Origin: a virus
Lineage: Duplodnaviria > Heunggongvirae > Uroviricota > Caudoviricetes
IMG/VR virus record: IMGVR_UViG_2609460218_000016
Coordinates: 1 to 13,586 of that record
Reading direction: 5' to 3' (one strand)
Length of the DNA: 13,586 nt
Below, one piece after another: positions 1 to 13,586 of the stretch. The stretch's first letter is position 1, and each line of letters opens with the position of its first letter. The notes under the pieces are model-generated. The model searched no databases. It saw nothing but the letters and a program-made list of their open reading frames with translations, and was not told the origin of the DNA. The translations under genes were made by a program, and so were the position numbers.

Positions 1-1131
1 TCAAATGACCAGTTTTTTCCATTCCTTACCGCGTGCGTCGTTGTAAATATCGGTCATTTTTTGATTCGAATGGCCTAGCAAAATTTTGGTATCAACCCCC
101 TGCTCTCTTAACAATCGCTCTGATAAAGATCTCTGCTCATGGAAAGAGGGAGGGGTGCCATTAGCACGCCAGTTGTAATCCACAGAATCCCGGGCTTTTT
201 TAAATGCAACGGTTAATGTTGCTGGCTTAACCATCCCGCCGCGCTTAGCTGTCCCTTTCGCGTGATGGTGGTGCAATAGCCACGGACTAAGAACGCAATC
301 GCGGCAGGATGACACCACATCATCCAGGGTGAGATTTAATTTATCGCAACGCAGAGCCAGAGGGATGGCAATCCGGGTTCCTGTTTTTTGCTGTTCGACA
401 TGAAGATAACCATCCCGGATATCCGAAAATTGCATTTTGCAAATATCTGAAAGGCGCTGGCCTGTCATCAGTGCCAGCAGCATACCGCGCTGTAAAAAGT
501 AACCATCCTTTTCCGCTGCGTTATAAATCATCATCCACTCATCAAAAGTCAGTCGCTGTCTTGATATCCGCACCTGCGGTTTTTTTGCCGATTCTGCAGG
601 GTTAAAGCCTGGCGGGACATCGCCCGTTTGCTGAGCTTCCCGGAAAACATCGATCAGTACCTTCCTGAAAATTTGTCCCATTCTGTTATGTCCTCTGGCC
701 TTGTACTCTTCCAGTACTGATACCACATCTTTTACGGTTATGGCATCTAACGGTCTGGTGCCAAAACGTTCATCAAATACCCTGAGAGGGGCCGCTTTCT
801 GTTTCAGCGTGTTGAGTTTGATCTCGCCGTTTTCATATCTTTCCTGTTGAATTTTTCTGTAATTATTCAGAAAAATGGTAACGGTTGATGAACCGCCGGT
901 ATCACTAATAATTTTCTCCTGCAGACTGAGCATTTGTTCCATTTGCTGCCGGGCAAGACGGCTGTTCGCTTCTGCTGCAATAGTTTCTGCCAGTTTCTGG
1001 TCAATACTGCCGAGACCGTGATTTTTGCCTGTTATGGGATGCCTGTAACGCCAGTAAACTTTGTTATTTCTTTTGTCAAAATACGGAGATAATCCCGGAA
1101 CATTGGTTTTATATTTTCGCGGGCGCGCCAT
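1..1131 (-). CDS. int: Phage tyrosine integrase (lambda Int family)
   Basis: 376-aa minus-strand ORF. N-terminus (MARPRKYKTNVPGLSPYF..YWRYRHPITGK..GLG) and C-terminus (HEQRSLSERLL..LLGHSNQKMTDIYNDARGKEWKKLVI) resemble lambda Int. Sits at the prophage end next to an excisionase, with the lambda-like int/xis overlap. Confidence 0.9.
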   Translation of the reverse strand: MARPRKYKTNVPGLSPYFDKRNNKVYWRYRHPITGKNHGLGSIDQKLAETIAAEANSRLARQQMEQMLSLQEKIISDTGGSSTVTIFLNNYRKIQQERYENGEIKLNTLKQKAAPLRVFDERFGTRPLDAITVKDVVSVLEEYKARGHNRMGQIFRKVLIDVFREAQQTGDVPPGFNPAESAKKPQVRISRQRLTFDEWMMIYNAAEKDGYFLQRGMLLALMTGQRLSDICKMQFSDIRDGYLHVEQQKTGTRIAIPLALRCDKLNLTLDDVVSSCRDCVLSPWLLHHHHAKGTAKRGGMVKPATLTVAFKKARDSVDYNWRANGTPPSFHEQRSLSERLLREQGVDTKILLGHSNQKMTDIYNDARGKEWKKLVI

Positions 1132-1357
1132 CTTCCAGTATCCTCTTCAAAGCAGGGTGATCTGTGGCGATCACCTCCGGCTTGTTTACCATTCCGACAA
1201 AGCGAGCTTGCGGATCCACTCGCCAGCGTCTTCCAACTTTTTTGGGGAGAGGAAATATCATTCCGGCTTTAGCGTATTTACTTAACGTACTCGGAGTTGG
1301 GACCGGTTCACTGAATTCCTCTTTTGCCCACTCAGTGAGCAGAATAAGTCTTGCCAT
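1109..1357 (-). CDS. xis: Excisionase (Xis-like)
   Basis: 82-aa ORF directly upstream of int on the same strand, overlapping the int start by 23 nt. The motif GMIFPLPKKVGRRWRV resembles the lambda Xis DNA-binding region. Assignment by position and motif, not a search. Confidence 0.7.
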   Translation of the reverse strand: MARLILLTEWAKEEFSEPVPTPSTLSKYAKAGMIFPLPKKVGRRWRVDPQARFVGMVNKPEVIATDHPALKRILEDGAPAKI

Positions 1358-1421
1358 GAGCGTCGTTCGCTAATCATGGTCGCCGCCACTATAGCTGGTG
1401 GGCAACGACCGGGGTTGAACA

Positions 1422-3893
1422 TTAAAAATCAGCCTGATTCGGGATCAGTTTTTGCCAGATAACTGAAACGTATTTTGCCTGGTAACGGGCGTCATCAAGT
1501 GCATTATGGCGCTCACCTTCGAATGGAATAGCCGTTCTGGCATCGAAGTCTATGGCTTTCCCCAGCTCAACGATTGTGCGTACATCGCGATCGTTGTAGT
1601 AACGCCACGGGCAGGGGATCCCCTGCCGTTCGTATGAACGGCGCAAAATCGTGTTGTCGAAGTTGGCTCCATTTCCCCAAACCTGAACAAAAAATTCACC
1701 GGAGTTTTCGTCGATAAATTCCCGCAATTGTAACAGTGCATCATCTAACGGGATTTCATCGGTCATAATGGCAGATTGCGCTTCGCGTGATTGCTTAAGC
1801 CACCATTTAATGGTGTCCCGATCAATGACTCCGCCAGCAGTTTCCAGATCGATAGTCTTACTAAATTCCGGTCCCATATCTCCGGTTTGCGGATCGAAAA
1901 ATATTGCACCTATTGAGATGATCGGGGCATCAGGATTTTTTCCCATGGTTTCAAGGTCGATCATTAGATGGTCACACGTCCTGCTGGTGGATGTGATTTC
2001 GTGATGACCGTTCACCTTAATTGAGTGATCTGCCGTCTCGCCAGTTTCATTATCGCTATTGTGATGCTGATTGCCGCCAGTGTTCTCCTTGTGTGGATGT
2101 TCAGCGCCTTCCATTTCCTCCAGATCATCTTCCTGAACTTCAACCTGATACTCTTCATCGAATGTTTCCTGGTATGTTGCGTCGCCCATCACCGCGCCAC
2201 AATCAGGGCAGTTGCCGCCGCCGGTCTGACCGCAGGCGGTGCAGACTTTTTCCACTTCCAGTTGCGCCACTGGTTCAGGCTGTTTCGTTTCTGGCTCGTT
2301 TTGTAACGCATTTGTGCTGTTTTGTTCCGCTTTTTGGTAGTTCCGTTCCGATTCATGCTGGTTCTGGTTCACAGAATCGCGGGTCTGGATCCCCTTAACC
2401 CATTTCGGATCATTCGGGTCACTAATCCCTTCAACAAATTCACCACGTGATGCAGCAAGCAACTTATCGGCGTCAGGCTGGCTGATATTGGCTGCCTGCA
2501 TAATTTTGTTTACTTCGTCAGCGGTAACTTTTATCGGCTCTGGTTGTTCTGAATCTTCAGCGGTATCTACATTTTGCGGTAAGCCCGTGTATGTGCCATT
2601 TTTTCGGGCAAAATATTCTTCTTTTGTGATTTCAGTGGCGCCAGCAGCCAGTGCCTTATCCAGACCAGAAAGTTTGTTTGCGCGACCGTATTTTTCTCCG
2701 TCCTTATCTGCGAAGAGGAAATAGAACGGCCCCTCACGCTCTACAGATGGTTCAGCTTCCGGCGCGGTTTCATTTTTTGGGATATCAGATACCTCAGTTT
2801 CCACTGCATCAGTTTGTGTTTCTGATGACTGGAGAACATCAACAGTGCCCAGGTCTGTTTCTTCATTCTCAAACACGCCCTTTGTCGTCAGGTATTCGCA
2901 GATATATTTGTTCAGTGCTATGGGATCTTTGTGAATGTCGATCGGACGCTCACGGACAAGGCCAAAAATAGTCTGGCGGTCGTAGCGAAGGGCATCAGGC
3001 TGTTTGCGCATTGATGCCGAGATACGCTTCCAGTCTTCGCGGTCGTTGTCGATAACTTCTTTTTTTGCCCAGCGATGGATGCTGCCGTCAATGTTTCCGG
3101 CATCCACATCACCAGGCCAGAGAGCGTAGGCCAGTTCGTCATCCAGTGTTTTCCATGTCTGCTTGTATTCGCGATGAATGGCAGCAATGACCGGGCTGAT
3201 TTTTCCTGTTGAATTTTCAGTGTACTGTTGATTGGTTCTGGCGCGGGCGAGATCAACAACAGACGTGTATTTTCCGGTTTCCTTGCGTTCACCTTCGCGA
3301 CGTTTTTTCCAGATGCGCATCTCTGCCTGAATTTCGGGCCATTTAGCACCAGGAATACATTTATGCTTAACCCACCCAATGGCGTGCAACTTAAGCTCCG
3401 GATACATGGCGTTAACTTCTGGCATTTTCATCAACGCTTCAACGATATGTCCGTCGAATGTTGCCATGTCTTCCTGCAACAATTCCTGTGCGCTAATAAC
3501 CATATCAACGGTGATGTTTTCACATGTGTCGAACTTAACCATGACAGCGTTCTGTACTTCAGGGGCCAGCTTGTCAAAAGTGACGTTCATCGGATCGGAT
3601 TCAGTCTCAACCGGGACAAAAGAAGCAGACTCCTCATCCCAGCGGTTTTCCTGCATATATTCAGCATCCCATGAATCGAGGGCAGGGCGGGGTATGCCAG
3701 GTTTATCCTCGCAGACAATAAATTTATAAGCGCAGTCCTGAGCAGCCGGATAATGTTCCAGGAACTGCCAGTGAAATTTTGCTCGAGCACGGCGTTCGTC
3801 GCCAGCTTCAATGGCTGTGGCTACAGCCACAGCGCCTTCTTCCCTTGTTGCCAGTTCGTCAGGAATAGCGGCGCAAATAAAGACTTTACTCAT
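1422..3893 (-). CDS. Prophage exonuclease (exodeoxyribonuclease VIII-like, with C-terminal DnaQ/DEDDh-type 3'-5' exonuclease domain)
   Basis: 823-aa ORF with an SD-like GAGGT upstream of the ATG at 3893. The C-terminal ~190 aa carry DEDDh-like motifs (MIDLETMG, NGANFD, HNALDDARY). A CxxC..CxxC zinc ribbon (CTACGQTGGGNCPDCG) and a long acidic low-complexity linker precede it. It occupies the recombination-gene slot between xis and the immunity region. Confidence 0.8.
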   Translation of the reverse strand: MSKVFICAAIPDELATREEGAVAVATAIEAGDERRARAKFHWQFLEHYPAAQDCAYKFIVCEDKPGIPRPALDSWDAEYMQENRWDEESASFVPVETESDPMNVTFDKLAPEVQNAVMVKFDTCENITVDMVISAQELLQEDMATFDGHIVEALMKMPEVNAMYPELKLHAIGWVKHKCIPGAKWPEIQAEMRIWKKRREGERKETGKYTSVVDLARARTNQQYTENSTGKISPVIAAIHREYKQTWKTLDDELAYALWPGDVDAGNIDGSIHRWAKKEVIDNDREDWKRISASMRKQPDALRYDRQTIFGLVRERPIDIHKDPIALNKYICEYLTTKGVFENEETDLGTVDVLQSSETQTDAVETEVSDIPKNETAPEAEPSVEREGPFYFLFADKDGEKYGRANKLSGLDKALAAGATEITKEEYFARKNGTYTGLPQNVDTAEDSEQPEPIKVTADEVNKIMQAANISQPDADKLLAASRGEFVEGISDPNDPKWVKGIQTRDSVNQNQHESERNYQKAEQNSTNALQNEPETKQPEPVAQLEVEKVCTACGQTGGGNCPDCGAVMGDATYQETFDEEYQVEVQEDDLEEMEGAEHPHKENTGGNQHHNSDNETGETADHSIKVNGHHEITSTSRTCDHLMIDLETMGKNPDAPIISIGAIFFDPQTGDMGPEFSKTIDLETAGGVIDRDTIKWWLKQSREAQSAIMTDEIPLDDALLQLREFIDENSGEFFVQVWGNGANFDNTILRRSYERQGIPCPWRYYNDRDVRTIVELGKAIDFDARTAIPFEGERHNALDDARYQAKYVSVIWQKLIPNQADF

Positions 3894-3986
3894 TTTGTTT
3901 TAACCTCATGACAGATTTAAGGATGAACAAATCCCTGCCATTGCTGGCATATAAGAATGAAACCGGATATTTATTACGGAACTGTT

Positions 3987-4179
3987 TTAAAGACCTGCCG
4001 GGATTTCGATATTATCCTGGTGAATAACTTTATCGACCGGGTAACAGTTACCGGGAATTTTCTGTTCGGTTGCTGCAGTCATACACTCCTGCATTGTCCT
4101 GTGCACACTGACTGCAATATCAACTGGCTCTCCGGAAACAAGNAAAAACTGTCAGAACAAGCACAAATGCTGAATTCAT
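3987..4179 (-). CDS. Hypothetical small protein, frame interrupted at the ambiguous base 4143
   Basis: ATG at 4179..4177 overlaps the stop of the upstream ORF as ATGA. The frame stops after 19 codons unless the N at 4143 (in a T-run on the coding strand) is skipped, which gives about 63 aa (MNSAFVLVLTVF-LVSGEPVDIAVSVHRTMQECMTAATEQKIPGNCYPVDKVIHQDNIEIPAGL). Hydrophobic N-terminus. Weak call. Confidence 0.25.
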
Positions 4180-4364
4180 TGTGCACATCCTTTTGGCATC
4201 AGACGTAAACGAGCCAGCATTGAAACAATGCATATTTTATTTAATAGCTCCCGTTCTTGTTTTCTCTTGTTAATGGCATCTTCAGTAAATACTGGGTTAC
4301 TGATAGTGACACCAATTTCAAAACAACCTTCAGACGTATTAACGTTTGGTAATAACGTTTTCAT
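4176..4364 (-). CDS. Hypothetical small protein (62 aa; ORF extends to 4469 if the first ATG is used)
   Basis: Internal ATG at 4364 has an SD-like GAGGA 7 nt upstream. Its stop overlaps the next minus-strand ATG (ATGA at 4176-4179), suggesting translational coupling. No recognisable domain. Confidence 0.4.
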   Translation of the reverse strand: MKTLLPNVNTSEGCFEIGVTISNPVFTEDAINKRKQERELLNKICIVSMLARLRLMPKGCAQ

Positions 4365-4923
4365 TATCGCGTCCTCAACAATGAATTTTGTGATGCAGTG
4401 CCTGGTGCCTCCAGGTGACGTTAACCAGTTAACAATTAACGCCGGATACAGAGAATCCACCCATAACACTGTTTTTGGTTTTAACTGTTCCGCGTGCGCT
4501 CAGCCGCATTCACCACATCACAAAATTCACTTTAAAAAGGGCGGCAGAGCAGTCACGGAGTAAAACTGATACCGCCAAACGTCACCAGAAAATTGATAAC
4601 AGAGGGCGTTGCAGCGGGGTTGTCACTTAAGCGTATGGTCAACCTGACAACCCGGTGTCCTCAACGGGGGAAGGAATAACCCCGCCATACTTACCGCCGC
4701 ACCATTTCGCGGATTGCCACAACCGGAAGCGCACGGTCGAACTAAATTTAACGACACCGTACAGAGAGACCAATTTCGCCGTGCGCTTTCGCGTTATGCC
4801 CTGACTTTTCAGGGACATATCCTTTCAGTAAACTGTCAGTGCCGGATGTTCACCCGTGTCCGGCGCACGCACTCCACCTGACCCGTGGAGAACTCCTTAA
4901 TTACCAACCCTCAGGAGGGTGAA

Positions 4924-5202
4924 ATGGATAAAAAGCAAATTGAGGCCCTGCAATCTATTATTGAAAAACAAGATGAAGCTATCAGGATTCTTTCATATCG
5001 CACTGATATGATACTAAATATGCTTTCTGCATTAACGGCTGCGCTTGGTGGTACAAAAACAAACGTATACCGCGAAGTTGTTATTCAACAGATAGATAAA
5101 TTTGAAAAAACCATACCAGGTATTAATGCTCATCTTGCAGAACAAGAGAAAGACCATGCTCTTATGGCAATTTCTTCAGTAGCTCTCCCGAAAGTTGAGT
5201 AG
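4924..5202 (+). CDS. Hypothetical protein (92 aa, predicted helical)
   Basis: Strong SD (AGGAGG) 5 nt upstream of the ATG at 4924; the ORF track starts it at 4885. AT-rich codon usage. Convergent with the 133-aa minus-strand ORF and overlaps it by about 40 nt at the 3' ends. Function unknown. Confidence 0.4.
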   Translation: MDKKQIEALQSIIEKQDEAIRILSYRTDMILNMLSALTAALGGTKTNVYREVVIQQIDKFEKTIPGINAHLAEQEKDHALMAISSVALPKVE

Positions 5203-5563
5203 TTTTAATTGTTGTTTTGAAATAATCACTGCTTTCACATTTGAGTGATTTCATGGCAATCCAAATGCGGGCCTCTGTGCCTGCATTTGGTTCCAGTTGC
5301 TGTAGACGTTTTGCGTCTTCCAAAAGTAAGGCGATAATGTGTTTCAGCTTCTCATCATTTGCTTGATTCTTGTTTTCAGGCGAATTCTGTCCGCCGAATA
5401 GGCGCTTCTCTTCATACAGACCTATAAAGGCACGACGCACGTTACCGGATATAGTATCGATGGTTTCTTTTTCTACGGTACTCAGGTCAAGAGTCGCCAG
5501 TTGAGAGCGAACCACATTCGATGCCATTTCCTGGAATGGTACTGGTAAATCTTTAAATTCCAT
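5162..5563 (-). CDS. Hypothetical protein (about 133 aa)
   Basis: Minus-strand ORF with an SD-like GAGGT 5 nt upstream of the ATG at 5563. An alternative ATG at 5575 overlaps the upstream stop (TGATG). Second gene of the leftward operon after the candidate OL. No domain recognised. Confidence 0.55.
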   Translation of the reverse strand: MEFKDLPVPFQEMASNVVRSQLATLDLSTVEKETIDTISGNVRRAFIGLYEEKRLFGGQNSPENKNQANDEKLKHIIALLLEDAKRLQQLEPNAGTEARIWIAMKSLKCESSDYFKTTIKTTQLSGELLKKLP

Positions 5564-5574
5564 CGTCAACCTCA

Positions 5575-5808
5575 TCAGTCAGTGTTTCTGGTTAACCAGC
5601 GACGCGCGCCAGCTTCAGTTTTAAACGTTTTGCTTCTGGTATACGTCATCGCGGTAAACGTGCCGTCCTGGTTGGGGAATACGCCACATACCAGAGATTC
5701 GTTGTTGCCAAGATTGAGCATATCCATGTTGACCTCATTTCCCCTTAACGCCGGGGTAGCGGAACAAAAACCTGCTGCATAGTTATTAAAGTTGAACCCT
5801 GCCGTCAT
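5575..5808 (-). CDS. Hypothetical small protein, first gene leftward of the immunity region (possible Kil-like position)
   Basis: 77-aa ORF, or about 50 aa from the internal ATG at 5727, which has an SD-like GAGGT. Stop is coupled to the next ORF start. It sits just downstream of the candidate OL operator. The C-terminal motif TEAGARRWL is noted, but any Kil assignment is speculative. Confidence 0.45.
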   Translation of the reverse strand: MTAGFNFNNYAAGFCSATPALRGNEVNMDMLNLGNNESLVCGVFPNQDGTFTAMTYTRSKTFKTEAGARRWLTRNTD

Positions 5809-5910
5809 GTTCTTACGCCTCGGGCTGGCTACTTAACCCCTGACCACTGCCTGGTAACTCGAAGTATTGCCCTGCATTCTGTGGGGCGGGGTGGGTTGGT
5901 ATGTTGTTAA

Positions 5911-5926
5911 GGTAACAAGAGTTACC
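5911..5926. promoter_or_regulatory. Candidate OL operator: palindrome GGTAAC-AAGA-GTTACC
   Basis: Perfect GTAAC-N4-GTTAC inverted repeat, the same core as the two palindromes between the repressor and cro-like genes. A TTGACT hexamer lies just upstream on the minus strand. Located between the repressor terminator and the first leftward gene. Confidence 0.4.
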
Positions 5927-5965
5927 TTTCGAGTCAATACAATGTTGCAAAAGGTACATTTGAGG

Positions 5966-5995
5966 GCATAAAAAACCCGCAATGAATGCGGGTTC
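5966..5995 (-). terminator. Rho-independent terminator downstream of the repressor reading frame
   Basis: On the minus strand: 7-bp GC-rich stem (ACCCGCA / TGCGGGT, 5975-5981 and 5987-5993) with a 5-nt loop, followed by TTTTTTAT. It lies immediately after the stop (6002..6000) of the reconstructed repressor C-terminal frame. Confidence 0.55.
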
Positions 5996-5999
5996 TGAC

Positions 6000-6292
6000 T
6001 CAGTCTAAGTATTGATGTATTTGTGAAACTTTACCTTTAATGGTGTAACCACCATTCAGTTCGATGGGTTTGTAAAGCGGATTCAGTGACAACAGATAGA
6101 TGTTTGGTCCGTCAATCGCAACNTTTTTTTAGTGTTACGTTTGGCGTTCCTTCCAATTGGATTAAGATTATTTTTCCCACCAGTTCTCTAATGTTACTTG
6201 AGCATGGTGTGATCAGCACGGTAGATCCGTCGGGGATGGTTGGGAGGCCGTTAGAGTTTGTCATCGCATCTCCCTCAACATGCAATNAAAAA
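6000..6292 (-). other. Out-of-frame continuation encoding the S24 (LexA/CI-type) peptidase-like C-terminal domain of the repressor
   Basis: Skipping the ambiguous bases at 6287 and 6123 (both beside homopolymer runs) joins the repressor ORF to ..NSF-L-LHVEGDAMTNSNGLPTIPDGSTVLITP..GKIILIQLEGTPNVTLKK-VAIDGPNIYLLSLNPLYKPIELNGGYTIKGKVSQIHQYLD*. This aligns by eye with the lambda CI C-terminal domain (FWLEVEGNSM..FTFKKLIRD..LNPQYPMI..GKVI). Stop at 6002..6000. Confidence 0.6.
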
Positions 6293-6775
6293 AGAGTTTT
6301 CAGCGGTTTTTGTCATGACATCAACCCAATTCTTAATACCAGGAATCTCGGTTACTGGACAACTCATATCCCAATAACCAGCCTGTTCCCACGTTAAAAC
6401 GGGCAACCGGGCGATGTTGTCACTAATGTAAGGGTACTGATTCAGACGCAGATCATCGGCTTTATCGTGACCGTCCTTTCCATAAAGAATCCATTCAGGA
6501 GATTTGGAAAGCAATTTTGACAGTAGATACAAATTCTCACCGTCAGGTTTTGAAGAGCCATTTTCCCATTTTGTTACGGATACACGAGATATGCCGATTG
6601 CTTTCGCAACCTGCTGTTGGGTTAATCCAACGTCTTTTCGACGATTCCGAATACGTTCGCTGATAGTGTTTTTCATGTAACCAATGTTACTACCAAGTGA
6701 TGTTGCTATGGTTGACATTGTTATGTAACTATTGTTACCCTTCTGCTCGAAATAACAGGAGAGTTTTATGTTCAA
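6275..6775 (-). CDS. CI-like phage repressor, N-terminal HTH (XRE-family) portion as assembled
   Basis: Helix-turn-helix motif LTQQQVAKAIGISRVSVTKWENG, divergent from a cro-like gene. The true start is more likely the internal ATG at 6718 or 6676 (MKNTISERIRNRRK..), since a start at 6775 would overlap the cro-like start. The frame ends at 6275 just after ..PVLTWEQAGYWD..ENSF, the beginning of an S24 domain. Confidence 0.8.
   Translation of the reverse strand: MNIKLSCYFEQKGNNSYITMSTIATSLGSNIGYMKNTISERIRNRRKDVGLTQQQVAKAIGISRVSVTKWENGSSKPDGENLYLLSKLLSKSPEWILYGKDGHDKADDLRLNQYPYISDNIARLPVLTWEQAGYWDMSCPVTEIPGIKNWVDVMTKTAENSFXIAC
6677..6738. promoter_or_regulatory. Candidate OR operator pair (GTAAC-N4-GTTAC at 6677-6690 and 6725-6738) with a rightward promoter -35 (TTGACA 6712-6717)
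   Basis: Two perfect 14-bp palindromes, GTAACCAATGTTAC and GTAACTATTGTTAC, lie between the divergent repressor and cro-like genes. A consensus TTGACA sits between them. The -10 element is not clear. Confidence 0.45.
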
Positions 6776-6983
6776 AGATGATGTTCTGCGCTATTTCAAA
6801 AAAAAGCGACTAGTAGCTGAGGCTCTTGGAATTTCACATGTGGCTGTTGTGCGGTGGAAAGCAGTTATTCCCAAACTTCGCGCAATGGAACTGGATGAAA
6901 TTACTAACAGTGAATTGAAATACAACCCAGAACTTTACAAGAAGCAGGATAGCACCTCAAACGAAGGAAAGAATGATTCATGA
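6768..6983 (+). CDS. Cro/YdaS-like small HTH regulator
   Basis: 71-aa ORF with SD AGGAG 7 nt upstream, divergent from the repressor. HTH (LVAEALGISHVAVVRWK) followed by the IPKLRAMELDEITNSELKYNPELY pattern typical of YdaS-family proteins. Stop overlaps the next gene start (ATGA). Confidence 0.8.
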   Translation: MFKDDVLRYFKKKRLVAEALGISHVAVVRWKAVIPKLRAMELDEITNSELKYNPELYKKQDSTSNEGKNDS

Positions 6984-7405
6984 AAATCAAGCATGAACAC
7001 ATCCGCATGGCGATGAATGTCTGGGCGCATCCGGACGGCGAAAAAGTACCGGCTGCGAAAATTACCAAAGCGTATTTCGAGCTGGGAATGACGTTCCCGG
7101 AACTGTATGACGACAGCCATCCGGAAGCCCTGGCCCGTAATACCCAGAAAATTTTCCGTTGGCTGGATAAAGACACCCCTGATGCTGTTGAAAAAATGCA
7201 GGCTCTGTTACCGGCGATCGAAAAGGCGATGCCGCCTTTGCTGGTGGCCCGTATGCGTAGCCACAGTTCTGAATATTACCGTGATATCGTCGAACGGAGG
7301 GATCGGCTGGTGAAGGATGTCGATGATTTTGTTGCGTCAGCGGTTGTTTTGTATGACCAGATGAATCGCGGCGGCCCGGCAGGGAATGCTGTGGTGATGC
7401 ACTAA
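6980..7405 (+). CDS. YdaT-like protein (CII-position gene of Rac-like prophages)
   Basis: 141-aa ORF beginning MKIKHEHI and ending ..VVMH, which matches my recollection of the Rac prophage YdaT family. Translationally coupled to the cro-like gene. Confidence 0.75.
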   Translation: MKIKHEHIRMAMNVWAHPDGEKVPAAKITKAYFELGMTFPELYDDSHPEALARNTQKIFRWLDKDTPDAVEKMQALLPAIEKAMPPLLVARMRSHSSEYYRDIVERRDRLVKDVDDFVASAVVLYDQMNRGGPAGNAVVMH

Positions 7406-7427
7406 AAGCACGGTGTTCGGGGGTTTT

Positions 7428-8390
7428 ATGAGCAGCAAGCTTCATGGTCTTGTCTGGGAAGGGTGCGCCTTCACCGGCATGATCTTATCCAGGGTGGCGG
7501 TTATGGCCCGTCTTGCAGACTACAGCAATGACGAGGGCGTGTCATGGCCTGCCATTGAAACTATCCGGCGTCAGATCGGTGCAAGAAGTGAATCCACAGT
7601 GAAATCGGCTATTGCAGAACTGGCGAAAGAGGGCTGGCTGACGAAGGAAGAGCGTAAGGTCGGTGGGCGTAATGTAAGCAATATCTATCGGCTTAATGTG
7701 GAAAAACTCGAAGCAGCTGCGGCGGCGGCGCGTGAGTCATATAAACCGAAAAGAAAAATTAGCCCGGCAAAAAATGACCCGTTAACAGTTGACCCGTCAA
7801 ATATTGACCCCTCAACGGTTGACCCGTCAAATTTTGATGGATCAACTGTTGATAAAAAACTGCCGATTANGGGGCCGATGATTGACCCCGATCCGTCAGT
7901 ATTAAAACCTGATCCGTCAGATAAAAGATCTTCTTGTCCGGACGCTTCGCAACCGGACCCGCAGACGGCTGAACAGGATTTTTTAACCCGACACCCTGAC
8001 GCGGTTGTGTTCAGTGCGAAAAAACGCCAGTGGGGAAGTCAGGAAGATTTGGTGTGCGCACAGTGGATCTGGGGACGAATCGTGAGTCTTTACGAGCAGG
8101 CGGCCAGCTATGATGGCGAGATCACTAGACCGAAAGAACCCAACTGGACAGCATGGGCCAATGACGTTCGCACAATGCGGATGCTGGATGGCAGAACTCA
8201 CAGACAAATTTGTGAAATGTTTGGGCGTCTCCAGCGGGATTCGTTCTGGGTAAAAAACATCATGAGTCCGGCAAAACTCCGGGAAAAATGGGATGAACTG
8301 GTTATCCGCCTGGGGCGTTCGCCTGCGCAGCGTTGCGTGAATCACATTTCTGAACCGGACACTGAAATACCGCCGGGATTCAGGGGGTGA
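7428..8390 (+). CDS. Phage replication initiator (O-like, HTH-containing)
   Basis: ORF track starts at a GTG (7413); the ATG at 7428 is preferred. N-terminal winged-helix region, four palindromic iterons inside the coding sequence, and a C-terminal domain followed directly by a DnaC-like gene. Contains the ambiguous base 7869. Confidence 0.8.
   Translation: MSSKLHGLVWEGCAFTGMILSRVAVMARLADYSNDEGVSWPAIETIRRQIGARSESTVKSAIAELAKEGWLTKEERKVGGRNVSNIYRLNVEKLEAAAAAARESYKPKRKISPAKNDPLTVDPSNIDPSTVDPSNFDGSTVDKKLPIXGPMIDPDPSVLKPDPSDKRSSCPDASQPDPQTAEQDFLTRHPDAVVFSAKKRQWGSQEDLVCAQWIWGRIVSLYEQAASYDGEITRPKEPNWTAWANDVRTMRMLDGRTHRQICEMFGRLQRDSFWVKNIMSPAKLREKWDELVIRLGRSPAQRCVNHISEPDTEIPPGFRG
7789..7845. repeat. 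Origin-like iteron array: four 12-bp palindromic repeats at 15-bp spacing inside the initiator gene
   Basis: TTGACCCGTCAA (7789-7800), TTGACCCCTCAA (7804-7815), TTGACCCGTCAA (7819-7830) and TTGATGGATCAA (7834-7845). Followed by an A-rich stretch and two GATCCGTCAG repeats with GATC sites at 7890-7920. Same arrangement as lambda ori inside gene O. Confidence 0.6.
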
Positions 8391-8396
8391 CGTGTC

Positions 8397-9143
8397 ATGA
8401 AAAACATTGCGGCAGGCGGCGTTCTTGAACGTATCCGAAGACTGGCTCCGCCACATGTAACCGCCCCATTCAGAACGGTAGCGGAGTGGCACGAGTGGCA
8501 ACTTGCTGAAGGCCAGAAACGTAGCGAGGAGATCAACCGCCTGAATCGCCAGTTGCGGGTGGAAAAAATTCTGAATCGCTCAGGCATCCAGCCGTTGCAC
8601 CGTAAATGCTCGTTTGCGAATTACCAGGTGCAGAACGACGGTCAGCGATACGCGTTGAGCCAGGCGAAATCTATCGCTGATGAACTGATGACCGGATGCA
8701 CAAATTTCGCGTTTAGCGGAAAACCTGGTACCGGGAAGAACCACTTAGCAGCAGCTATCGGGAATCGCCTGCTGAAAGACGGTCAGACAGTGATTGTGGT
8801 TACCGTNGCTGATGTTATGAGTGCCCTCCACGCCAGCTATGACGATGGGCAGTCAGGCGAAAAATTTTTGCGGGAACTGTGCGAAGTGGATCTGCTGGTT
8901 CTTGATGAAATTGGCATTCAGCGCGAGACGAAAAACGAGCAGGTGGTACTGCACCAGATTGTTGATCGCCGGACAGCGTCGATGCGCAGCGTGGGGATGC
9001 TGACAAACCTGAACTATGAGGCCATGAAAACATTGCTCGGCGAGCGGATTATGGATCGCATGACCATGAACGGCGGGCTATGGGTGAATTTTAACTGGGA
9101 GAGCTGGCGTCCGAATGTCGTCCAGCCAGGAATTGCGAAGTAA
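8397..9143 (+). CDS. DnaC-family replicative helicase loader (AAA+ ATPase)
   Basis: 248-aa ORF with Walker A ([15 protein letters not shown]) and Walker B (DLLVLDEIG). Reads as collinear with E. coli DnaC along its length (e.g. [31 protein letters not shown]). Contains the ambiguous base 8807, in frame. Confidence 0.9.
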
Positions 9144-9165
9144 TTTTTACCGGGAGAAAAATTTA

Positions 9166-9927
9166 ATGGAGACTGTTTTTGACGCACTGAAAGCAATGGG
9201 AAAAGCCACATCCATAGAACTTGCTGCGCGACTTGATATCAGTCGTGAAGAAGTGCTGAACGAACTATGGGAACTGAAAAAGGCTGGTTTTGTTGATAAA
9301 AGCGCGTACACCTGGCGTGTGGCTGATAACAACGTTCAGCAGGAACAGCCAGCGCAGGCAGAACTGCCGGAAGAAATCACCACAGCAACAGTAGCGAAAA
9401 TCTCAGAGTGCGATTTAACCGCGACGATTGAACAACGAGGACCACAAACGGCTGATGAGCTGGCTACATTGTTTGGTACCACATCACGCAAAGTGGCTTC
9501 AACGCTGGCAATGGCAATCAGCAAAGGTCGTCTGATTCGCGTAAATCAGGGCGGTAAATTTCGTTACTGCATACCGGGCGATAATTTACCAGCAGAGCCG
9601 AAAGCAGCATCGGTAGCGGAAACTGATGGTAAGGCCTTTCCTCATACCGCAGGTGTTGCGTTACCAGTACAGGAGGCTGCAACACAGGAAGATATTAAAA
9701 CAGAAACTGTGGCGGACATTGTGCAGTCGCTGCCATCGTTTACTGAAACGCGAGCGGATGACCTGGTTTTACCATCACTGCATATGGCAAACCGCGAACT
9801 GCGTCGGGCGAAAAATCATGTCCAGAAGTGGGAGCGAGTCTGCGCCGCGCTGCGGGAGCTGAACAAGCACCGGGATATTGTTCGACAGATTACTGATTCT
9901 TCCCGCCGTGTTGTATCGGAAAAGTGA
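9166..9927 (+). CDS. Hypothetical prophage protein with two predicted winged-helix modules
   Basis: ATG at 9166 with an upstream GGAG; the ORF track starts at 9115. Two HTH-like segments ([30 protein letters not shown] and [33 protein letters not shown]). Follows the DnaC-like gene. Confidence 0.7.
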
Positions 9928-9942
9928 TTGCCGGAGGCGCTT

Positions 9943-10374
9943 ATGGCAAAAGTATTTACACAAGAAGAGCGGGAAAAAATTAAAGGGCAGGTTGTTGAGC
10001 TAGTACGCCGGAGTGGGCGCGAGACGTTACGGCAACTGGAAGCCAAGACAGGTGCGACAAGATATCTGATGAGCGTTCTCGCCAGAGAGCTGGTTGCCAG
10101 TGGCGATGTATACAACTCTGGTTACGGGTTATTCCCGTCTGAACAGGCTCGTAAGGACTGGCAAAATGCCCGCAAAAAACTATCCAGGGCAAAGGTGAAG
10201 AAACCATCTGTGGTTGATCCGGACCTTATCTGGTCATTACCAGACGGAGAAATACGCCGCTACGACAGGCGTCTGAACATAATCTGTCGCGAGTGCCGGA
10301 AGAGCGAAGTTATGCAGCGTGTGCTGGCGTTTTATCAGAATGGTTTTCGAGAGAGGCTTGGAGATCANGGATGA
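9943..10374 (+). CDS. Hypothetical prophage protein
   Basis: ATG at 9943 with SD GGAGG 5 nt upstream. Basic, with a single CxxC. The ambiguous base 10368 lies two codons before the stop. Confidence 0.65.
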   Translation: MAKVFTQEEREKIKGQVVELVRRSGRETLRQLEAKTGATRYLMSVLARELVASGDVYNSGYGLFPSEQARKDWQNARKKLSRAKVKKPSVVDPDLIWSLPDGEIRRYDRRLNIICRECRKSEVMQRVLAFYQNGFRERLGDXG

Positions 10375-10566
10375 ATAGAACGATGAAGGATGGAAGCTAC
10401 ATATTCTCGGTACTAAGATTTATTTTTCTGACACAAAATGACCATTTGGCGTTACATAATCCAAAAAAACGTATCAAAAATCTCAAAATGCGTTACGATT
10501 AGAGAGTATTTTGATTCTGCGTGCTCATTTTTTGATTGCTGTGGCTTTTTGTTGTGGGAGTGTTGA

Positions 10567-11721
10567 ATGGATTATTTATCAGAAGTGTTAAAAATCATTG
10601 AAGGTGCAACAAAGGCAAATGCTTCGATGGCTAGTAATTATGCTGGGTTGCTGGCAGATAAGCTCGAACAAAAAGGGGAGGTCAAGCAAGCCAGAATGAT
10701 AAGAGAAAGGTTGCTTAGAGCTCCCCAGGCGTTGGCAGGAGCTCAAAGGGCTGGAGGTGGGATATCTCTGGGCTCATTACCGGTAGATATTGATAGTCGA
10801 CTCAACACTGTTGATGTCAGTTATCCTAAATTAGACAGTTCAGAGATTTTTCTGCCTGCAGCAATCAGTACCCGTGTTGAAGAGTTTATCACTAATGTTC
10901 AACGTTATGATGAGTTTGTTAAAGCTGATGCAGCATTGCCGAGTCGTATGCTCGTGTATGGAAAGCCAGGAACAGGTAAGACTATGTTATCTAAGTACAT
11001 CGCTACCCGCTTAGATTTTCCACTTCTTACAGTGCGTTGCGATACTTTGATTAGTAGTTTATTGGGACAAACCAGCAAAAATCTTAGACAGGTTTTCGAT
11101 TATGTAATGCAGAGGCCATCAGTGCTTTTTTTAGACGAATTTGATGCTTTAGCTGGAGCAAGAGGTAATGAGAGAGATATAGGTGAGCTTCAGCGAGTTG
11201 TCATTTCACTATTGCAGAATATGGATGCGGCATCAGAGGATACGGTAATTATTGCCTCAACTAACCATGAGCAACTTCTGGATCCTGCAATCTGGAGGCG
11301 ATTTAGCTTCAGAATTCCAATGCCTCTGCCTGACATACATCAGAGAGAGTTAATTTGGAAAAATCGTTTAAAGAATATGATATGTAGCGATCTAGATTTA
11401 AGTGATTTATCAAGAAAATCGGAGGGATTATCCGGAGCAATAATTGAACAGGTGAGCTTGGATGCACGTAGGGATGCAGTTATTGAAGGTGCAAGTGTGA
11501 TAAATCACCATAAATTGTATAGGCGTTTGTATCTTGCGCAATCGCTTATGGAAGGTGTAAATTTAAGCACTTACGAAGATGAAATTCGTTGGTTACGTTC
11601 TAAAGATAAAAAATTATTTTCTATCAGAGTTCTTGCTAATTTGTACAAACTTACATCAAGAGTAATTTCAAACATTCTGAAGGAGTCAGGAGCATATGAG
11701 CAGAAGGGGTACACAGTTTAG
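10567..11721 (+). CDS. AAA+ ATPase (classical AAA clade), putative ATPase subunit of a two-gene defence module (IetA-like architecture)
   Basis: 384-aa ORF with SD GGGAG upstream. Walker A GKPGTGKT, Walker B VLFLDEFD, sensor-1 IIASTN, and the second region of homology / Arg finger DPAIWRRF. The N-terminal ~120 aa have no recognisable domain. The gene is markedly AT-rich compared with the phage backbone. Confidence 0.9.
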   Translation: MDYLSEVLKIIEGATKANASMASNYAGLLADKLEQKGEVKQARMIRERLLRAPQALAGAQRAGGGISLGSLPVDIDSRLNTVDVSYPKLDSSEIFLPAAISTRVEEFITNVQRYDEFVKADAALPSRMLVYGKPGTGKTMLSKYIATRLDFPLLTVRCDTLISSLLGQTSKNLRQVFDYVMQRPSVLFLDEFDALAGARGNERDIGELQRVVISLLQNMDAASEDTVIIASTNHEQLLDPAIWRRFSFRIPMPLPDIHQRELIWKNRLKNMICSDLDLSDLSRKSEGLSGAIIEQVSLDARRDAVIEGASVINHHKLYRRLYLAQSLMEGVNLSTYEDEIRWLRSKDKKLFSIRVLANLYKLTSRVISNILKESGAYEQKGYTV

Positions 11722-13321
11722 TAACGCAAAAGTTACAAACCCAATGTTAAGAATCCCTTTTTCCAGTAGTGACTTGGGTGCAATAGTAAACGCTGGCGGT
11801 GGGGCAAAGGTATTGGTTGATGTAACAGCCGAATATAGACAAGGGCTAGTAAGAAATTTAACAACCAGTAAACATTATTTAGAATCCAAACTTTCAGAGT
11901 ACCCTGGAAGCTTGGGTACTTTGGTTTTCAAATTAAGAGACCAGGGAATAGCCAAAACGCATAGGCCGAACAAAATTGCTCAAGAGGCTGGATTGCAAAA
12001 TGCCGGTCATGCCAAAATAGATGAAATGTTGGTTGCTGCTCATGCCGGCTGTTTTGACGTATTAGAGTCAGTCATTTTACATCGGAATATTAAAGCGATT
12101 TTGGCTAATCTAAGCGCGATTGAGCGCATTGAACCTTGGGATGAGAATAGGAAGGTTCCAGGAGGCACTGATGGTTTGTTTGAATCATCAAACATCCTTG
12201 TACGACTATTTGAGTACACAGGTGAAGATGCAACTTACAACAACTATGAAAACGTTATTTCTATATTAGAACAACACGGAGTTAAATATGATGAGATTAG
12301 ACCAAAATGTGGTCTTCCCTTATTAAGGATAATGGATTTATCCCCAAATGATAGATATATATTAGACATTCTCATTGATTACCCGGGTATAAGAACGTTA
12401 ATTCCAGAACCAAAATATTCAGCATTCCCGGTTAGTGTAAGTGATTCTGTTGGCATTGAAACAAATAGCTTTCCCGTACCATCAGAAGAATTACCCATTG
12501 TTGCTGTATTTGACACTGGGGTAAGCCCCATCGCGGCAACAATTACTCCTTGGGTAGTGAGTAGGGAAACATACGTAATTCCTCCTGATACGAGTTATGA
12601 ACATGGGACTATGGTGTCTTCATTGATATCAGGCGCTCATTTTTTAAATGACAATCATCCATGGATTCCTGATACAAAATCTAAAATCCATGATGTTTGT
12701 GCTTTAGATGAAAATGGATCTTATATATCAGATTTAATTCTGAGGCTAGCAGATGCTGTAAATAAAAGACCAGATATAAAAGTCTGGAATTTATCTTTGG
12801 GAGGCGGACCATGTAATGAGCAGATGTTTAGTGATTTTGCGATGGAGTTAGATCGGCTCAGCGATAAATTTGGTATTTTGTTTGTAGTTGCTGCAGGTAA
12901 TTATGTAGATGAACCTATACGTACATGGCCAAATCCTGATCCGCTTGGAGGTGCTGATTTAATTTCCTCTCCTGGAGAGTCAGTCCGAGCACTAACAGTT
13001 GGTTCAGTTTCTCATATGGAAGCTAATGATGCTTTAAGTGAAATTGGAACACCGACACCATATACTCGTCGTGGCCCTGGGCCTGTATTTACTCCAAAGC
13101 CAGATATAATCCATGCTGGCGGTGGGGTTCATAGACCTTGGAATGTAGGAGCAAGCAGTTTAAAGGTCGTAGGGCCAGATAATAGGCTTTGCTCTAATTT
13201 TGGTACTAGTTTTGCTGCTCCAATTGTGGCAAGTTTAGCTGCGCATACATGGCAGAGAATAGCCACTAATTCAGACTTTAATGTTTCACCGGCTTTGTTG
13301 AATAAATCAGATTTCGGGTAA
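11696..13321 (+). CDS. S8-family subtilisin-like serine peptidase, 3' end interrupted by IS insertion (IetS-like architecture)
   Basis: All four S8 catalytic motifs are present in order: Asp (VAVFDTGVS), His (HGTMVSS), Asn (VWNLSLGG) and Ser (GTSFAAP). The start overlaps the ATPase stop by 26 nt, indicating an operon. The last 10 codons and the stop are encoded by the IS terminal repeat starting at 13291, so the native C-terminus is missing or displaced. An alternative start is the ATG at 11744. Confidence 0.85.
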   Translation: MSRRGTQFSNAKVTNPMLRIPFSSSDLGAIVNAGGGAKVLVDVTAEYRQGLVRNLTTSKHYLESKLSEYPGSLGTLVFKLRDQGIAKTHRPNKIAQEAGLQNAGHAKIDEMLVAAHAGCFDVLESVILHRNIKAILANLSAIERIEPWDENRKVPGGTDGLFESSNILVRLFEYTGEDATYNNYENVISILEQHGVKYDEIRPKCGLPLLRIMDLSPNDRYILDILIDYPGIRTLIPEPKYSAFPVSVSDSVGIETNSFPVPSEELPIVAVFDTGVSPIAATITPWVVSRETYVIPPDTSYEHGTMVSSLISGAHFLNDNHPWIPDTKSKIHDVCALDENGSYISDLILRLADAVNKRPDIKVWNLSLGGGPCNEQMFSDFAMELDRLSDKFGILFVVAAGNYVDEPIRTWPNPDPLGGADLISSPGESVRALTVGSVSHMEANDALSEIGTPTPYTRRGPGPVFTPKPDIIHAGGGVHRPWNVGASSLKVVGPDNRLCSNFGTSFAAPIVASLAAHTWQRIATNSDFNVSPALLNKSDFG

Positions 13322-13586
13322 GTCTCCCCCGTAGCGGGTTGTGTTTTCAGGCAATACGCACGCTTTCAGGCATACCTGCTTTCGTCATTTTGTTCAGCGC
13401 TCGTACCAGGGCCATAGCCTCCGCAACCTGACCATCGTAGTCACGCAGCGTCAGTGAACCCCCGAACAGCTGTTTTACCCGGTACATCGCCGTTTCCGCT
13501 ATCGAGCGACGGTTGTAATCTGTTGTCCATTTCCACCGCGCATTACTCCCGGTCATTCGCTGATTAGCCACTGCACGGTTACGGTC
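13291..13586 (-). mobile_element. IS903-group (IS5 family) insertion sequence, partial, running off the window end
   Basis: The terminal sequence GGCTTTGTTGAATAAATC at 13291-13308 matches the IS903/IS102 inverted repeat as I recall it. The adjacent minus-strand ORF ends ..MTKAGMPESVRIA, which I recognise as the IS903 transposase C-terminus. Confidence 0.8.
13347..13586 (-). CDS. IS903-family transposase, C-terminal fragment (gene continues beyond the window)
   Basis: Minus-strand ORF open to the window edge. Translation ..RRSIAETAMYRVKQLFGGSLTLRDYDGQVAEAMALVRALNKMTKAGMPESVRIA*. Confidence 0.75.
   Translation of the reverse strand, partial: DRNRAVANQRMTGSNARWKWTTDYNRRSIAETAMYRVKQLFGGSLTLRDYDGQVAEAMALVRALNKMTKAGMPESVRIA

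Follow-up and report, generated by a model that had tools for sequence, protein, structure and literature searches.

Introduction

Described relatives of the locus reported here include the IetA/IetS pair of the Agrobacterium Ti plasmid pTiC58 and the SgiA/SgiT pair of Salmonella Genomic Island 1 (SGI1); in both, an AAA+ ATPase antitoxin comes first and a subtilisin-like serine-protease toxin second, the same order as in the present operon (PMC5006074). IetAS was first found on pTiC58 as a toxin-antitoxin pair acting in plasmid stability and incompatibility, with IetS as the toxin and IetA as the antitoxin; the homologous SgiAT is built likewise and promotes maintenance of the island (PMC5006074). 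Both pairs fall in the same PADLOC IetA/IetS model sets as our operon and were studied for the maintenance of a plasmid and a genomic island, respectively, whereas the operon described here is carried by a prophage. The IteA homologues of Agrobacterium and Rhizobium plasmids are distant, with only about 34-38% identity over the ATPase core. A three-gene variant with an SNF2 helicase, ietHAS (Liu-DS4), has IetA, IetS and the toxin-antitoxin logic in common with the operon (PMC13069673), but its helicase gene is present neither beside our operon nor beside the intact sister loci.

Defence by this family requires protease activity, and a plasmid bearing mutated ietA proved impossible to construct (PMC13069673). 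An abortive-infection phenotype triggered by a phage protein has been described (bioRxiv 10.1101/2022.08.27.505566), and ietAS of the E. coli strain ECOR52, when provided alone, had limited activity on a panel of 29 phages (bioRxiv 10.1101/2022.08.21.504612). [quoted passage not shown] Our literature search returned no mechanistic study for IteA/IteS or for ietAS with cryo-EM, and searches by sequence and by fold returned no solved IetA or IetS structure, only generic p97/Cdc48-type ATPases and generic subtilases. IetAS itself is no new system: it has been named and catalogued and has been put to the test in published experiments; it reportedly entered PADLOC, DefenseFinder and NCBIfam (where it is called IteA/IteS) after a 2020 survey of defence systems.

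Results

An AT-rich operon in an exchangeable prophage slot

The locus lies in a stretch of 13,586 nucleotides (the window) and comprises two overlapping plus-strand open reading frames, ORF1 at 10567-11721 (384 aa) and ORF2 at 11696-13321 (541 aa), both starting with ATG. Their overlap of 26 nt is the same in intact E. coli iteA/iteS loci, and Shine-Dalgarno-like sequences are found 8 nt before the ATG of iteA at 10567 (GGGAG) and upstream of the iteS start at 11696 (AGGAG). The first gene and its surroundings are laid out as follows.

10375..10566, plus strand: upstream spacer of iteA, AT-rich (34.9% GC)
10567..11721, plus strand: iteA/ietA, a complete AAA+ ATPase of the classical clade (384 aa) and the antitoxin of the pair (profile and identity matches)
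10960..10983, plus strand: Walker A codons, G132-KPGTGKT-139, including K138 (motif; aligns with the p97 Walker A)
11122..11139, plus strand: Walker B codons, 186-VLFLDE-191, with D190/E191 (motif; p97 alignment)
11263..11301, plus strand: sensor-1 N233 (STN) to R244/R245 of the second region of homology (PAIWRRF), aligning with p97 'atnrp..dpailrpgr'

The iteAS promoter presumably lies in the spacer; a sigma-70 consensus scan together with a terminator scan over 10200-13586 gave no promoter site there, and over the same interval promoter-like sites were overall rarer than in shuffled sequence.

Each gene has 40.2% GC, with a GC3 of 33% in ORF1 and 27% in ORF2, whereas the neighbouring genes stand at 51.7% (O-like), 53.1% (DnaC-like), 49.6% (DUF1627) and 50.8% (DUF977), the GC3 of the O-like and DnaC-like genes is 52-61%, and positions 1-10374 of the window have 47.9% GC overall. 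A preliminary description of this DNA had noted the 26-nt overlap and an AT-richness relative to the replication genes, and both hold on re-measurement; its GC range of 33-40% was slightly low, the 500-nt windows from 10751 to 13250 giving 36.6-42.8%.

The operon is flanked by DUF977 and DUF968/RusA/Q in an ompW-integrated lambdoid prophage. In sister prophages the same slot holds queH-hokD, and since similarity to the sister prophages without iteAS stops at about 10337, we place the left boundary of the cargo at about that point. The same operon also occurs in another phage, the Rac-like, ttcA-adjacent vB_EcoS-683R6. Judged by its GC and GC3 below those of the neighbours, by the queH-hokD alternative and by this second phage, iteAS is exchangeable prophage cargo, with the replication genes on one side and the DUF968/RusA/Q late-regulatory block on the other; the preliminary description had likewise suggested acquired cargo.

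The two genes belong to IetAS

That description had also proposed an operon of an AAA+ ATPase and an S8 subtilase, as a possible homologue of IetAS, and had named profile HMM and PADLOC searches as the way to check it. In these searches ORF1 matched Pfam AAA (E 2.6e-30) and the PADLOC IetA profile (E 8.9e-143), and ORF2 matched Pfam Peptidase_S8 (E 5.2e-23) and the PADLOC IetS profile (E 3e-194, profile positions 3-526 of 749 only). ORF1 scored 526.6 bits against the NCBIfam equivalog NF042959 (IteA_antiphage) over the entire profile (1-367 of 367), above the cut-off of 510 bits, which makes it a full-length IetA/IteA member, and it is identical to WP_000385105.1 at 384 of 384 residues. Its AAA core is nearest to the D2 domain of p97/Cdc48 (E 1e-53), and the Walker A, Walker B, sensor-1 and Arg-finger motifs that had been reported as complete could all be located (K138, D190/E191, N233 and R244/R245). 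A CBASS-type TRIP13 ATPase was also considered for ORF1 and rejected, the match being weak (E 2e-16, compared with 9e-143 for IetA) with the AAA+ core alone in common.

The second gene carries the following features.

11696..13290, plus strand: 5' fragment of iteS/ietS, residues 1-532 of a 754-aa S8 peptidase, the toxin/effector (profile and identity matches)
12512-12514, 12602-12604, 12899-12901 and 13208-13210, plus strand: IteS catalytic codons for D273, H303, N402 and S505, respectively

All four catalytic residues, D273 (DTG), H303 (HGT), N402 (GNY) and S505 (GTSFA), are invariant in an alignment of 57 diverse homologues, so the D-H-N-S set seen earlier is indeed retained, and the roughly 250-aa N-terminal region that had been left unassigned corresponds to residues 1-267, for which Pfam gave no match. 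Against the NCBIfam equivalog NF042956 (IteS), ORF2 reached 666 bits, below the cut-off of 900 bits for a full-length member, since it covers the profile at positions 1-524 of 747 only. Its residues 1-532 are 100% identical to WP_032183377.1, a 754-aa IteS, and the identity is restricted to that part. Since what is present is identical to a bona fide IteS, the sequence comparison identifies ORF2 as a truncated IteS (a pseudogene) and not as a member of another family.

The intact operon, annotated iteA/iteS, was found at an identity of at least 99.7% in 78 of 5,426 complete E. coli genomes, and RefSeq labels 99.9%-identical loci iteA/iteS. The window genes form an adjacent, co-oriented pair, ietA then ietS, in an arrangement identical to that of the intact loci L001 and L003, and they carry the ATPase motifs and the D-H-N-S residues of IetAS. 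Strain MLI104K2 has 99.4% DNA identity over window positions 1-13290 and holds the operon in the corresponding slot of a likewise ompW-integrated lambdoid prophage, with DUF977 on one side and DUF968/RusA/Q on the other; AR_0069 is another strain that has the operon intact. By these comparisons the pair is the known IetAS module in a nearly identical copy and nothing new as a system; an uncharacterised ATPase-protease pair is ruled out by the equivalog-level match and by the 100% identity to annotated IteA/IteS.

IS903B interrupts iteS after codon 532

In contrast to the intact 754-aa IteS of E. coli prophages, the native peptidase sequence of the window ends at nt 13290 (codon 532), where identity to the intact loci stops, and what follows belongs to an insertion sequence.

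13291..13321, plus strand: IS-encoded tail of ORF2, 9 codons (A-L-L-N-K-S-D-F-G) and a stop, from the IS903B terminal inverted repeat GGCTTTGTTGAATAAATC
13291..13586, minus strand: partial IS903B, 296 of 1057 bp, matching IS903 in phage P7 and in SJ46 at 100% identity
13347-13571 and beyond, minus strand: 3' end of the IS903B transposase (open reading frame); the window ends inside the element

The E. coli matches to this part are annotated 'IS5-like element IS903B family transposase', and both a terminal inverted repeat at the junction and the C-terminus of a minus-strand transposase are present, as in an insertion of this IS5-family element. By its sequence, iteS is therefore cut by IS903B at codon 532/533. 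The preliminary description had placed the end of the peptidase at 13321, which has to be moved to 13290, the nucleotides in between being part of the IS903B inverted repeat. It had hinted at a damaged 3' end; the damage is there, and takes the form of an IS903B insertion that removes 222 residues.

The join might instead be an artefact of assembly where a repeat ended the contig, with iteS intact in reality. The window does end inside IS903B, as is typical for the end of a draft contig, and its six N calls, three of which are homopolymer-length ambiguities, signal an imperfect assembly. A real insertion would be expected to continue past the end of the window, where the far junction and the 3' part of iteS would lie, as a 1,057-bp IS903B, the 9-bp duplication TGTTTCACC and then ATCATTGATTAAAGC... 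plus the remaining 666 nt of iteS, giving a reciprocal junction of the IS903B end, TGTTTCACC and ATCATTGATT...; exact-pattern scans of species-representative genomes found neither the observed nor this predicted junction. None of the 5,426 complete E. coli genomes spanned the junction in a 200-bp query, the observed junction was not found in metagenome contigs, and a look-up of the exact 541-aa product returned no record. However, the breakpoint falls on the exact first base of the terminal inverted repeat, nt 13291 aligning with base 92007 of phage P7, which is annotated as the IS903 terminus; this is what transposition yields and what a random chimeric join would rarely hit. We therefore regard an artefact as quite unlikely and take the insertion as real in what follows.

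The missing segment is the best-conserved part of IteS

Intact IteS has 754 aa, from a gene of 2,265 nt, and all 57 homologues are 748-773 aa long. The 222 residues lost here include 41 positions that are invariant in the 57-homologue alignment, and the majority fraction is 0.74 in the lost segment, compared with 0.69 in the retained S8 part and 0.54 in the N-terminal region. The lost segment is the best-conserved part of the IteS family.

IS903B enters the reading frame 27 residues past the catalytic Ser, at a point inside the Pfam S8 envelope. The window protein matches the Pfam profile up to position 261 of 288 only; intact IteS matches it up to position 274 of 288 (residue 544), and its S8 match extends to that residue or beyond. 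A complete subtilase (MEROPS S8 / Pfam PF00082) catalytic domain is thus lacking in the window protein. In an AF2 model of full-length IteS (pLDDT 85, pTM 0.88), the cut falls at the start of helix 532-546, so that the modelled catalytic domain loses helices 532-546, 552-558 and 566-570, and a beta-rich domain is predicted at 576-720.

The best Foldseek matches to this model were ProN-Tk-SP (3afg) and KP-43 (1wmd), with E from 5e-23 to 6e-19, and PCSK9 was matched at about 2e-15. These proteins have a propeptide and a C-terminal beta domain and share the D-H-N-S arrangement with IteS, but their identity to it is 13-18%, and they are secreted or standalone enzymes without an AAA+ partner and outside toxin-antitoxin or defence systems.

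Tk-SP stays active without its C-terminal beta-jelly-roll domain, and some subtilases tolerate loss of such a domain. A shortened IetS made of residues 1-532 and 9 residues from the IS could accordingly still be a working protease, leaving a module that defends or a deregulated toxin held in check by IetA. With D273, H303, N402 and S505 kept, iteA intact and Tk-SP among the fold neighbours, such an outcome is conceivable, but the cut inside the S8 envelope, the predicted loss of three catalytic-domain helices, the 41 invariant residues that are gone and the length of the homologues (0 of 57 shorter than 748 aa) make it, in our judgement, hardly probable. Loss of the C-terminal domain alone would be no proof of inactivity; what counts most is that the catalytic fold lacks its terminal helices, together with the conservation. 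Because the subtilase fold has lost its last helices and the whole conserved C-terminal beta domain is gone, the window iteAS is most likely an inactive copy, a dead toxin/effector beside an orphan antitoxin, with defence lost.

Discussion

In intact copies, going by the literature on homologues, IetS would be the toxic effector and IetA its antitoxin, and certain phages, sensed via a phage protein, would release the toxicity of IetS and lead to abortive infection. IetA would use ATP hydrolysis to keep IetS latent or to remodel it into that state, for which the propeptide-like N-terminal modules of IetS, with one such module at about residues 167-242, could serve, and the phage trigger would break this restraint, upon which IetS may cleave essential cell or phage proteins.

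The main role in the element could also be addiction: as a toxin-antitoxin pair, IetAS would then stabilise the prophage, and its action against phages would come second. The discovery on pTiC58 as a stability and incompatibility pair and the contribution of SgiAT to SGI1 maintenance (PMC5006074) fit such a role, as does the little protection given by E. coli ietAS alone on the 29-phage panel (bioRxiv 10.1101/2022.08.21.504612). The two roles are not exclusive, however: homologues show defence and abortive-infection phenotypes (PMC13069673; bioRxiv 10.1101/2022.08.27.505566), NCBIfam and PADLOC curate the family as anti-phage, and with the toxin gene broken here neither role is likely to operate. 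We consider addiction as the main role possible, though rather unlikely.

Could the IS903B insertion have been a selected inactivation of IetS, with orphan IetA neutralising incoming IetS or truncated IetS acting as a decoy for the phage trigger? We find this very improbable; if it were true, an expressed orphan IetA would act against the IetS of IetAS-bearing phages, plasmids and islands as an anti-addiction or anti-defence function. Taken as a whole, the locus is very probably IetAS cargo of an ompW-integrated lambdoid prophage, with iteA intact, iteS broken by IS903B and the copy most likely dead.

The locus is correctly annotated as an intact iteA followed by an iteS pseudogene with an IS903B insertion, and the source strain should not be scored as IetAS-positive by automated defence-system callers; beyond annotation, the finding has little importance. 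The locus provides a further case of lambdoid prophages in which the stretch from the replication genes to the Q antiterminator gene serves as an exchangeable cargo slot, occupied by iteAS or queH-hokD. For the family, conservation and the full-length model single out the C-terminal beta domain as the best-conserved portion of IteS, which may serve as a pointer for work on the IetAS mechanism.

Identity of the ATPase-peptidase gene pair

The preliminary description had read positions 10567-13321 as an AT-rich operon in which two overlapping genes encode an AAA+ ATPase and an S8 subtilase. The pair is indeed present, with a 26-nt overlap and a Shine-Dalgarno-like sequence ahead of each ORF:

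10567-11721, + strand, iteA, 384 aa
11696-13321, + strand, iteS-derived ORF, 541 aa

Both genes have a GC content of 40.2%, with GC3 of 33% (iteA) and 27% (iteS), against 50-53% GC in the four genes upstream of iteA, a GC3 of 52-61% in the O-like and DnaC-like genes and 47.9% GC in the remainder of the window; the 33-40% first given was slightly low, but the contrast with the upstream genes is real.

The motifs originally listed for the ATPase are all found, namely Walker A (G132-KPGTGKT-139), Walker B (VLFLDE191), sensor-1 (N233) and the arginines R244/R245, as is the D-H-N-S set of the peptidase (D273, H303, N402 and S505), invariant across the 57 homologues aligned. The N-terminal peptidase region, described as unassigned, matched no Pfam family over residues 1-267. 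The suspected relation to IetAS (IteA/IteS in NCBI spelling) was borne out at the strongest level that sequence permits: PADLOC profiles matched the ATPase to IetA (E 8.9e-143) and the peptidase to IetS (E 3e-194), and the ATPase passed the NCBIfam equivalog 'anti-phage ATPase IteA' (526.6 bits, cut-off 510) over the whole profile and is identical to WP_000385105.1 at 384/384 residues. By Megablast, the operon occurs at an identity of at least 99.7% in 78 of 5,426 complete E. coli genomes, and PGAP annotates iteA / iteS in all matching genomes among those listed. The feature is already known: its family has been named, curated and tested by experiment, and dozens of complete genomes hold alleles that are essentially identical. 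Relatedness to the founding pTiC58-type systems is distant, the ATPase cores encoded on Agrobacterium and Rhizobium plasmids being ~34-38% identical.

The IteA core falls in the classical AAA clade, and among solved structures it is closest to p97/Cdc48 D2 (E ~1e-53). At the pore-loop-1 position, aligned to 'W-F-G' of p97 D2, IteA carries L165-L166-G167 (window 11059-11067), whereas typical substrate-threading AAA+ unfoldases have aromatic-hydrophobic-Gly; Leu-Leu-Gly is nearer to the 'L-A-G' of p97 D1.

The operon occupies an exchangeable prophage slot

The window corresponds to the left arm of a lambdoid prophage, whose neighbouring genes were assigned from Pfam:

1-1131, - strand, integrase
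1109-1357, - strand, excisionase
1422-3893, - strand, 823-aa exonuclease
~6003-6718, - strand, LexA-family repressor
6980-7405, + strand, YdaT-like gene
7413-8390, + strand, O-like gene
8397-9143, + strand, DnaC-like gene (ydaV)
9115-9927, + strand, DUF1627
9928-10374, + strand, DUF977

The prophage adjoins ompW in the closest complete genomes, where DUF968, RusA and the Q antiterminator come after iteA-iteS. Sister prophages at the ompW site are 94-95% identical to the window up to ~nt 10337, past which queH and hokD replace iteAS before similarity resumes at DUF968. In two of them, L004 and L005, this slot, equivalent to window 10375 onward and lying between DUF977 and DUF968, holds:

L004 17283-18341, queH (epoxyqueuosine reductase) and hokD (type I toxin)
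L005 17545-18603, queH and hokD

The same operon is found in an equivalent position in vB_EcoS-683R6, a different, ttcA-adjacent Rac-like phage. The swap and this equivalent placement confirm the earlier reading of the operon as acquired cargo; the cargo in this slot, with replication genes on one side and late-regulation genes on the other, is exchangeable, and here it is iteAS.

The exonuclease ORF is intact in the window and has a C-terminal Rv2179c-like 3'-5' exoribonuclease domain; in MLI104K2, the complete genome closest to the window, the gene is annotated as frameshifted.

Immunity region and base-call ambiguities

The immunity region (5904-6973) is mosaic. By megablast it has no match in L001 or L003, the intact-operon prophages otherwise closest to the window (about 98-99.9% identical over aligned segments), and its match is to the LexA-type repressor/Cro module carried by L004 and L005, which are more distant sisters. 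The window contains six N calls, of which those at 4143, 6123 and 6287 lie beside A5, T7 and A6 homopolymers and represent one extra base relative to the sister prophages, while each of those at 7870, 8807 and 10368 stands in place of a single G; together they are a sign of ambiguous consensus or base calling in the source assembly. The cI-like repressor gene, 95-98% identical to a 238-aa sister-prophage protein, is broken into three frames exactly at 6287 and 6123, and since the breaks coincide with N calls, the apparent frameshifts are probably sequencing ambiguity rather than true inactivation.

IS903B interrupts iteS

DNA identity to every intact locus ends at nt 13290, and the whole of the window from 13291 onward matches IS903 at 100% identity. 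Position 13291, where the inverted repeat GGCTTTGTTGAATAAATC begins, corresponds to the base annotated as the terminus of IS903 in phage P7, so that the 541-aa ORF takes its last 9 codons and its stop from the IS. The element is incomplete within the window:

running past the window end, - strand, IS903B transposase

Identity with the 754-aa IteS WP_032183377.1 is accordingly limited to residues 1-532, and because of the interruption the NCBIfam IteS equivalog scores below its cut-off (666 against 900 bits; profile positions 1-524 of 747). The insertion is the sole feature specific to this copy, and its junction with iteS was not found elsewhere among the 5,426 complete E. coli genomes, species-representative genomes and metagenome contigs, nor was the 541-aa product found among protein records. 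A junction created by misassembly is unlikely, because the breakpoint falls exactly on the IS terminus.

Predicted consequence of the truncation

Nearly all of the 120 homologues listed measure 748-773 aa, the range also spanned by the 57 diverse homologues aligned. Of the IteS segments, the 222 residues that are lost are the most strongly conserved (majority fraction 0.74, 41 invariant positions), compared with 0.69 for the retained S8 part and 0.54 for the N-terminal region. The Pfam S8 match reaches residue 544 in intact IteS (profile 274/288), while the window protein stops at profile position 261. In an AlphaFold2 model of full-length IteS (pLDDT 85.3, pTM 0.88), the N-terminal region forms two alpha/beta modules, the second of which (~167-242), just upstream of the S8 domain, has its strands and helices in the order beta-alpha-beta-beta-alpha-beta, as is typical of subtilisin propeptides; after it come the subtilase domain (~268 to ~570) and a conserved beta-rich C-terminal domain (576-720). 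The IS903B junction lies where helix 532-546 begins, 27 residues past the catalytic serine. The best Foldseek PDB matches, ProN-Tk-SP and KP-43 (16-18% identity), are likewise subtilases with a C-terminal beta domain; neither sequence search nor Foldseek against the PDB found a solved IetS or IetA structure. Lacking part of the catalytic fold and a conserved domain, the 541-aa product is most likely inactive, and this iteAS copy is probably pseudogenised.

Implications for the IetAS mechanism

On pTiC58, IetS is the toxin and IetA its antitoxin, and the SGI1 homologue SgiAT works in the same manner (PMC5006074). Defence by an IetS homologue requires protease activity, and no plasmid with mutated ietA could be obtained, consistent with IetA acting as an antitoxin; the same 2026 NAR paper states the anti-phage mechanism to be still unknown (PMC13069673). 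In Bacillus cereus the system works through abortive infection, and expression of a specific phage protein makes it toxic (bioRxiv 10.1101/2022.08.27.505566). In E. coli, ietAS is associated with prophages, and the ECOR52 system gives limited protection on its own (bioRxiv 10.1101/2022.08.21.504612). We propose that an IetA hexamer would hold IetS latent using ATP, that a phage trigger would remove this restraint and that the released IetS would degrade essential proteins. In the window copy it is this effector that is broken, and within intact IteS the modelled propeptide-like module and C-terminal beta-rich domain are candidates for a role in regulation or latency in the IetAS mechanism.
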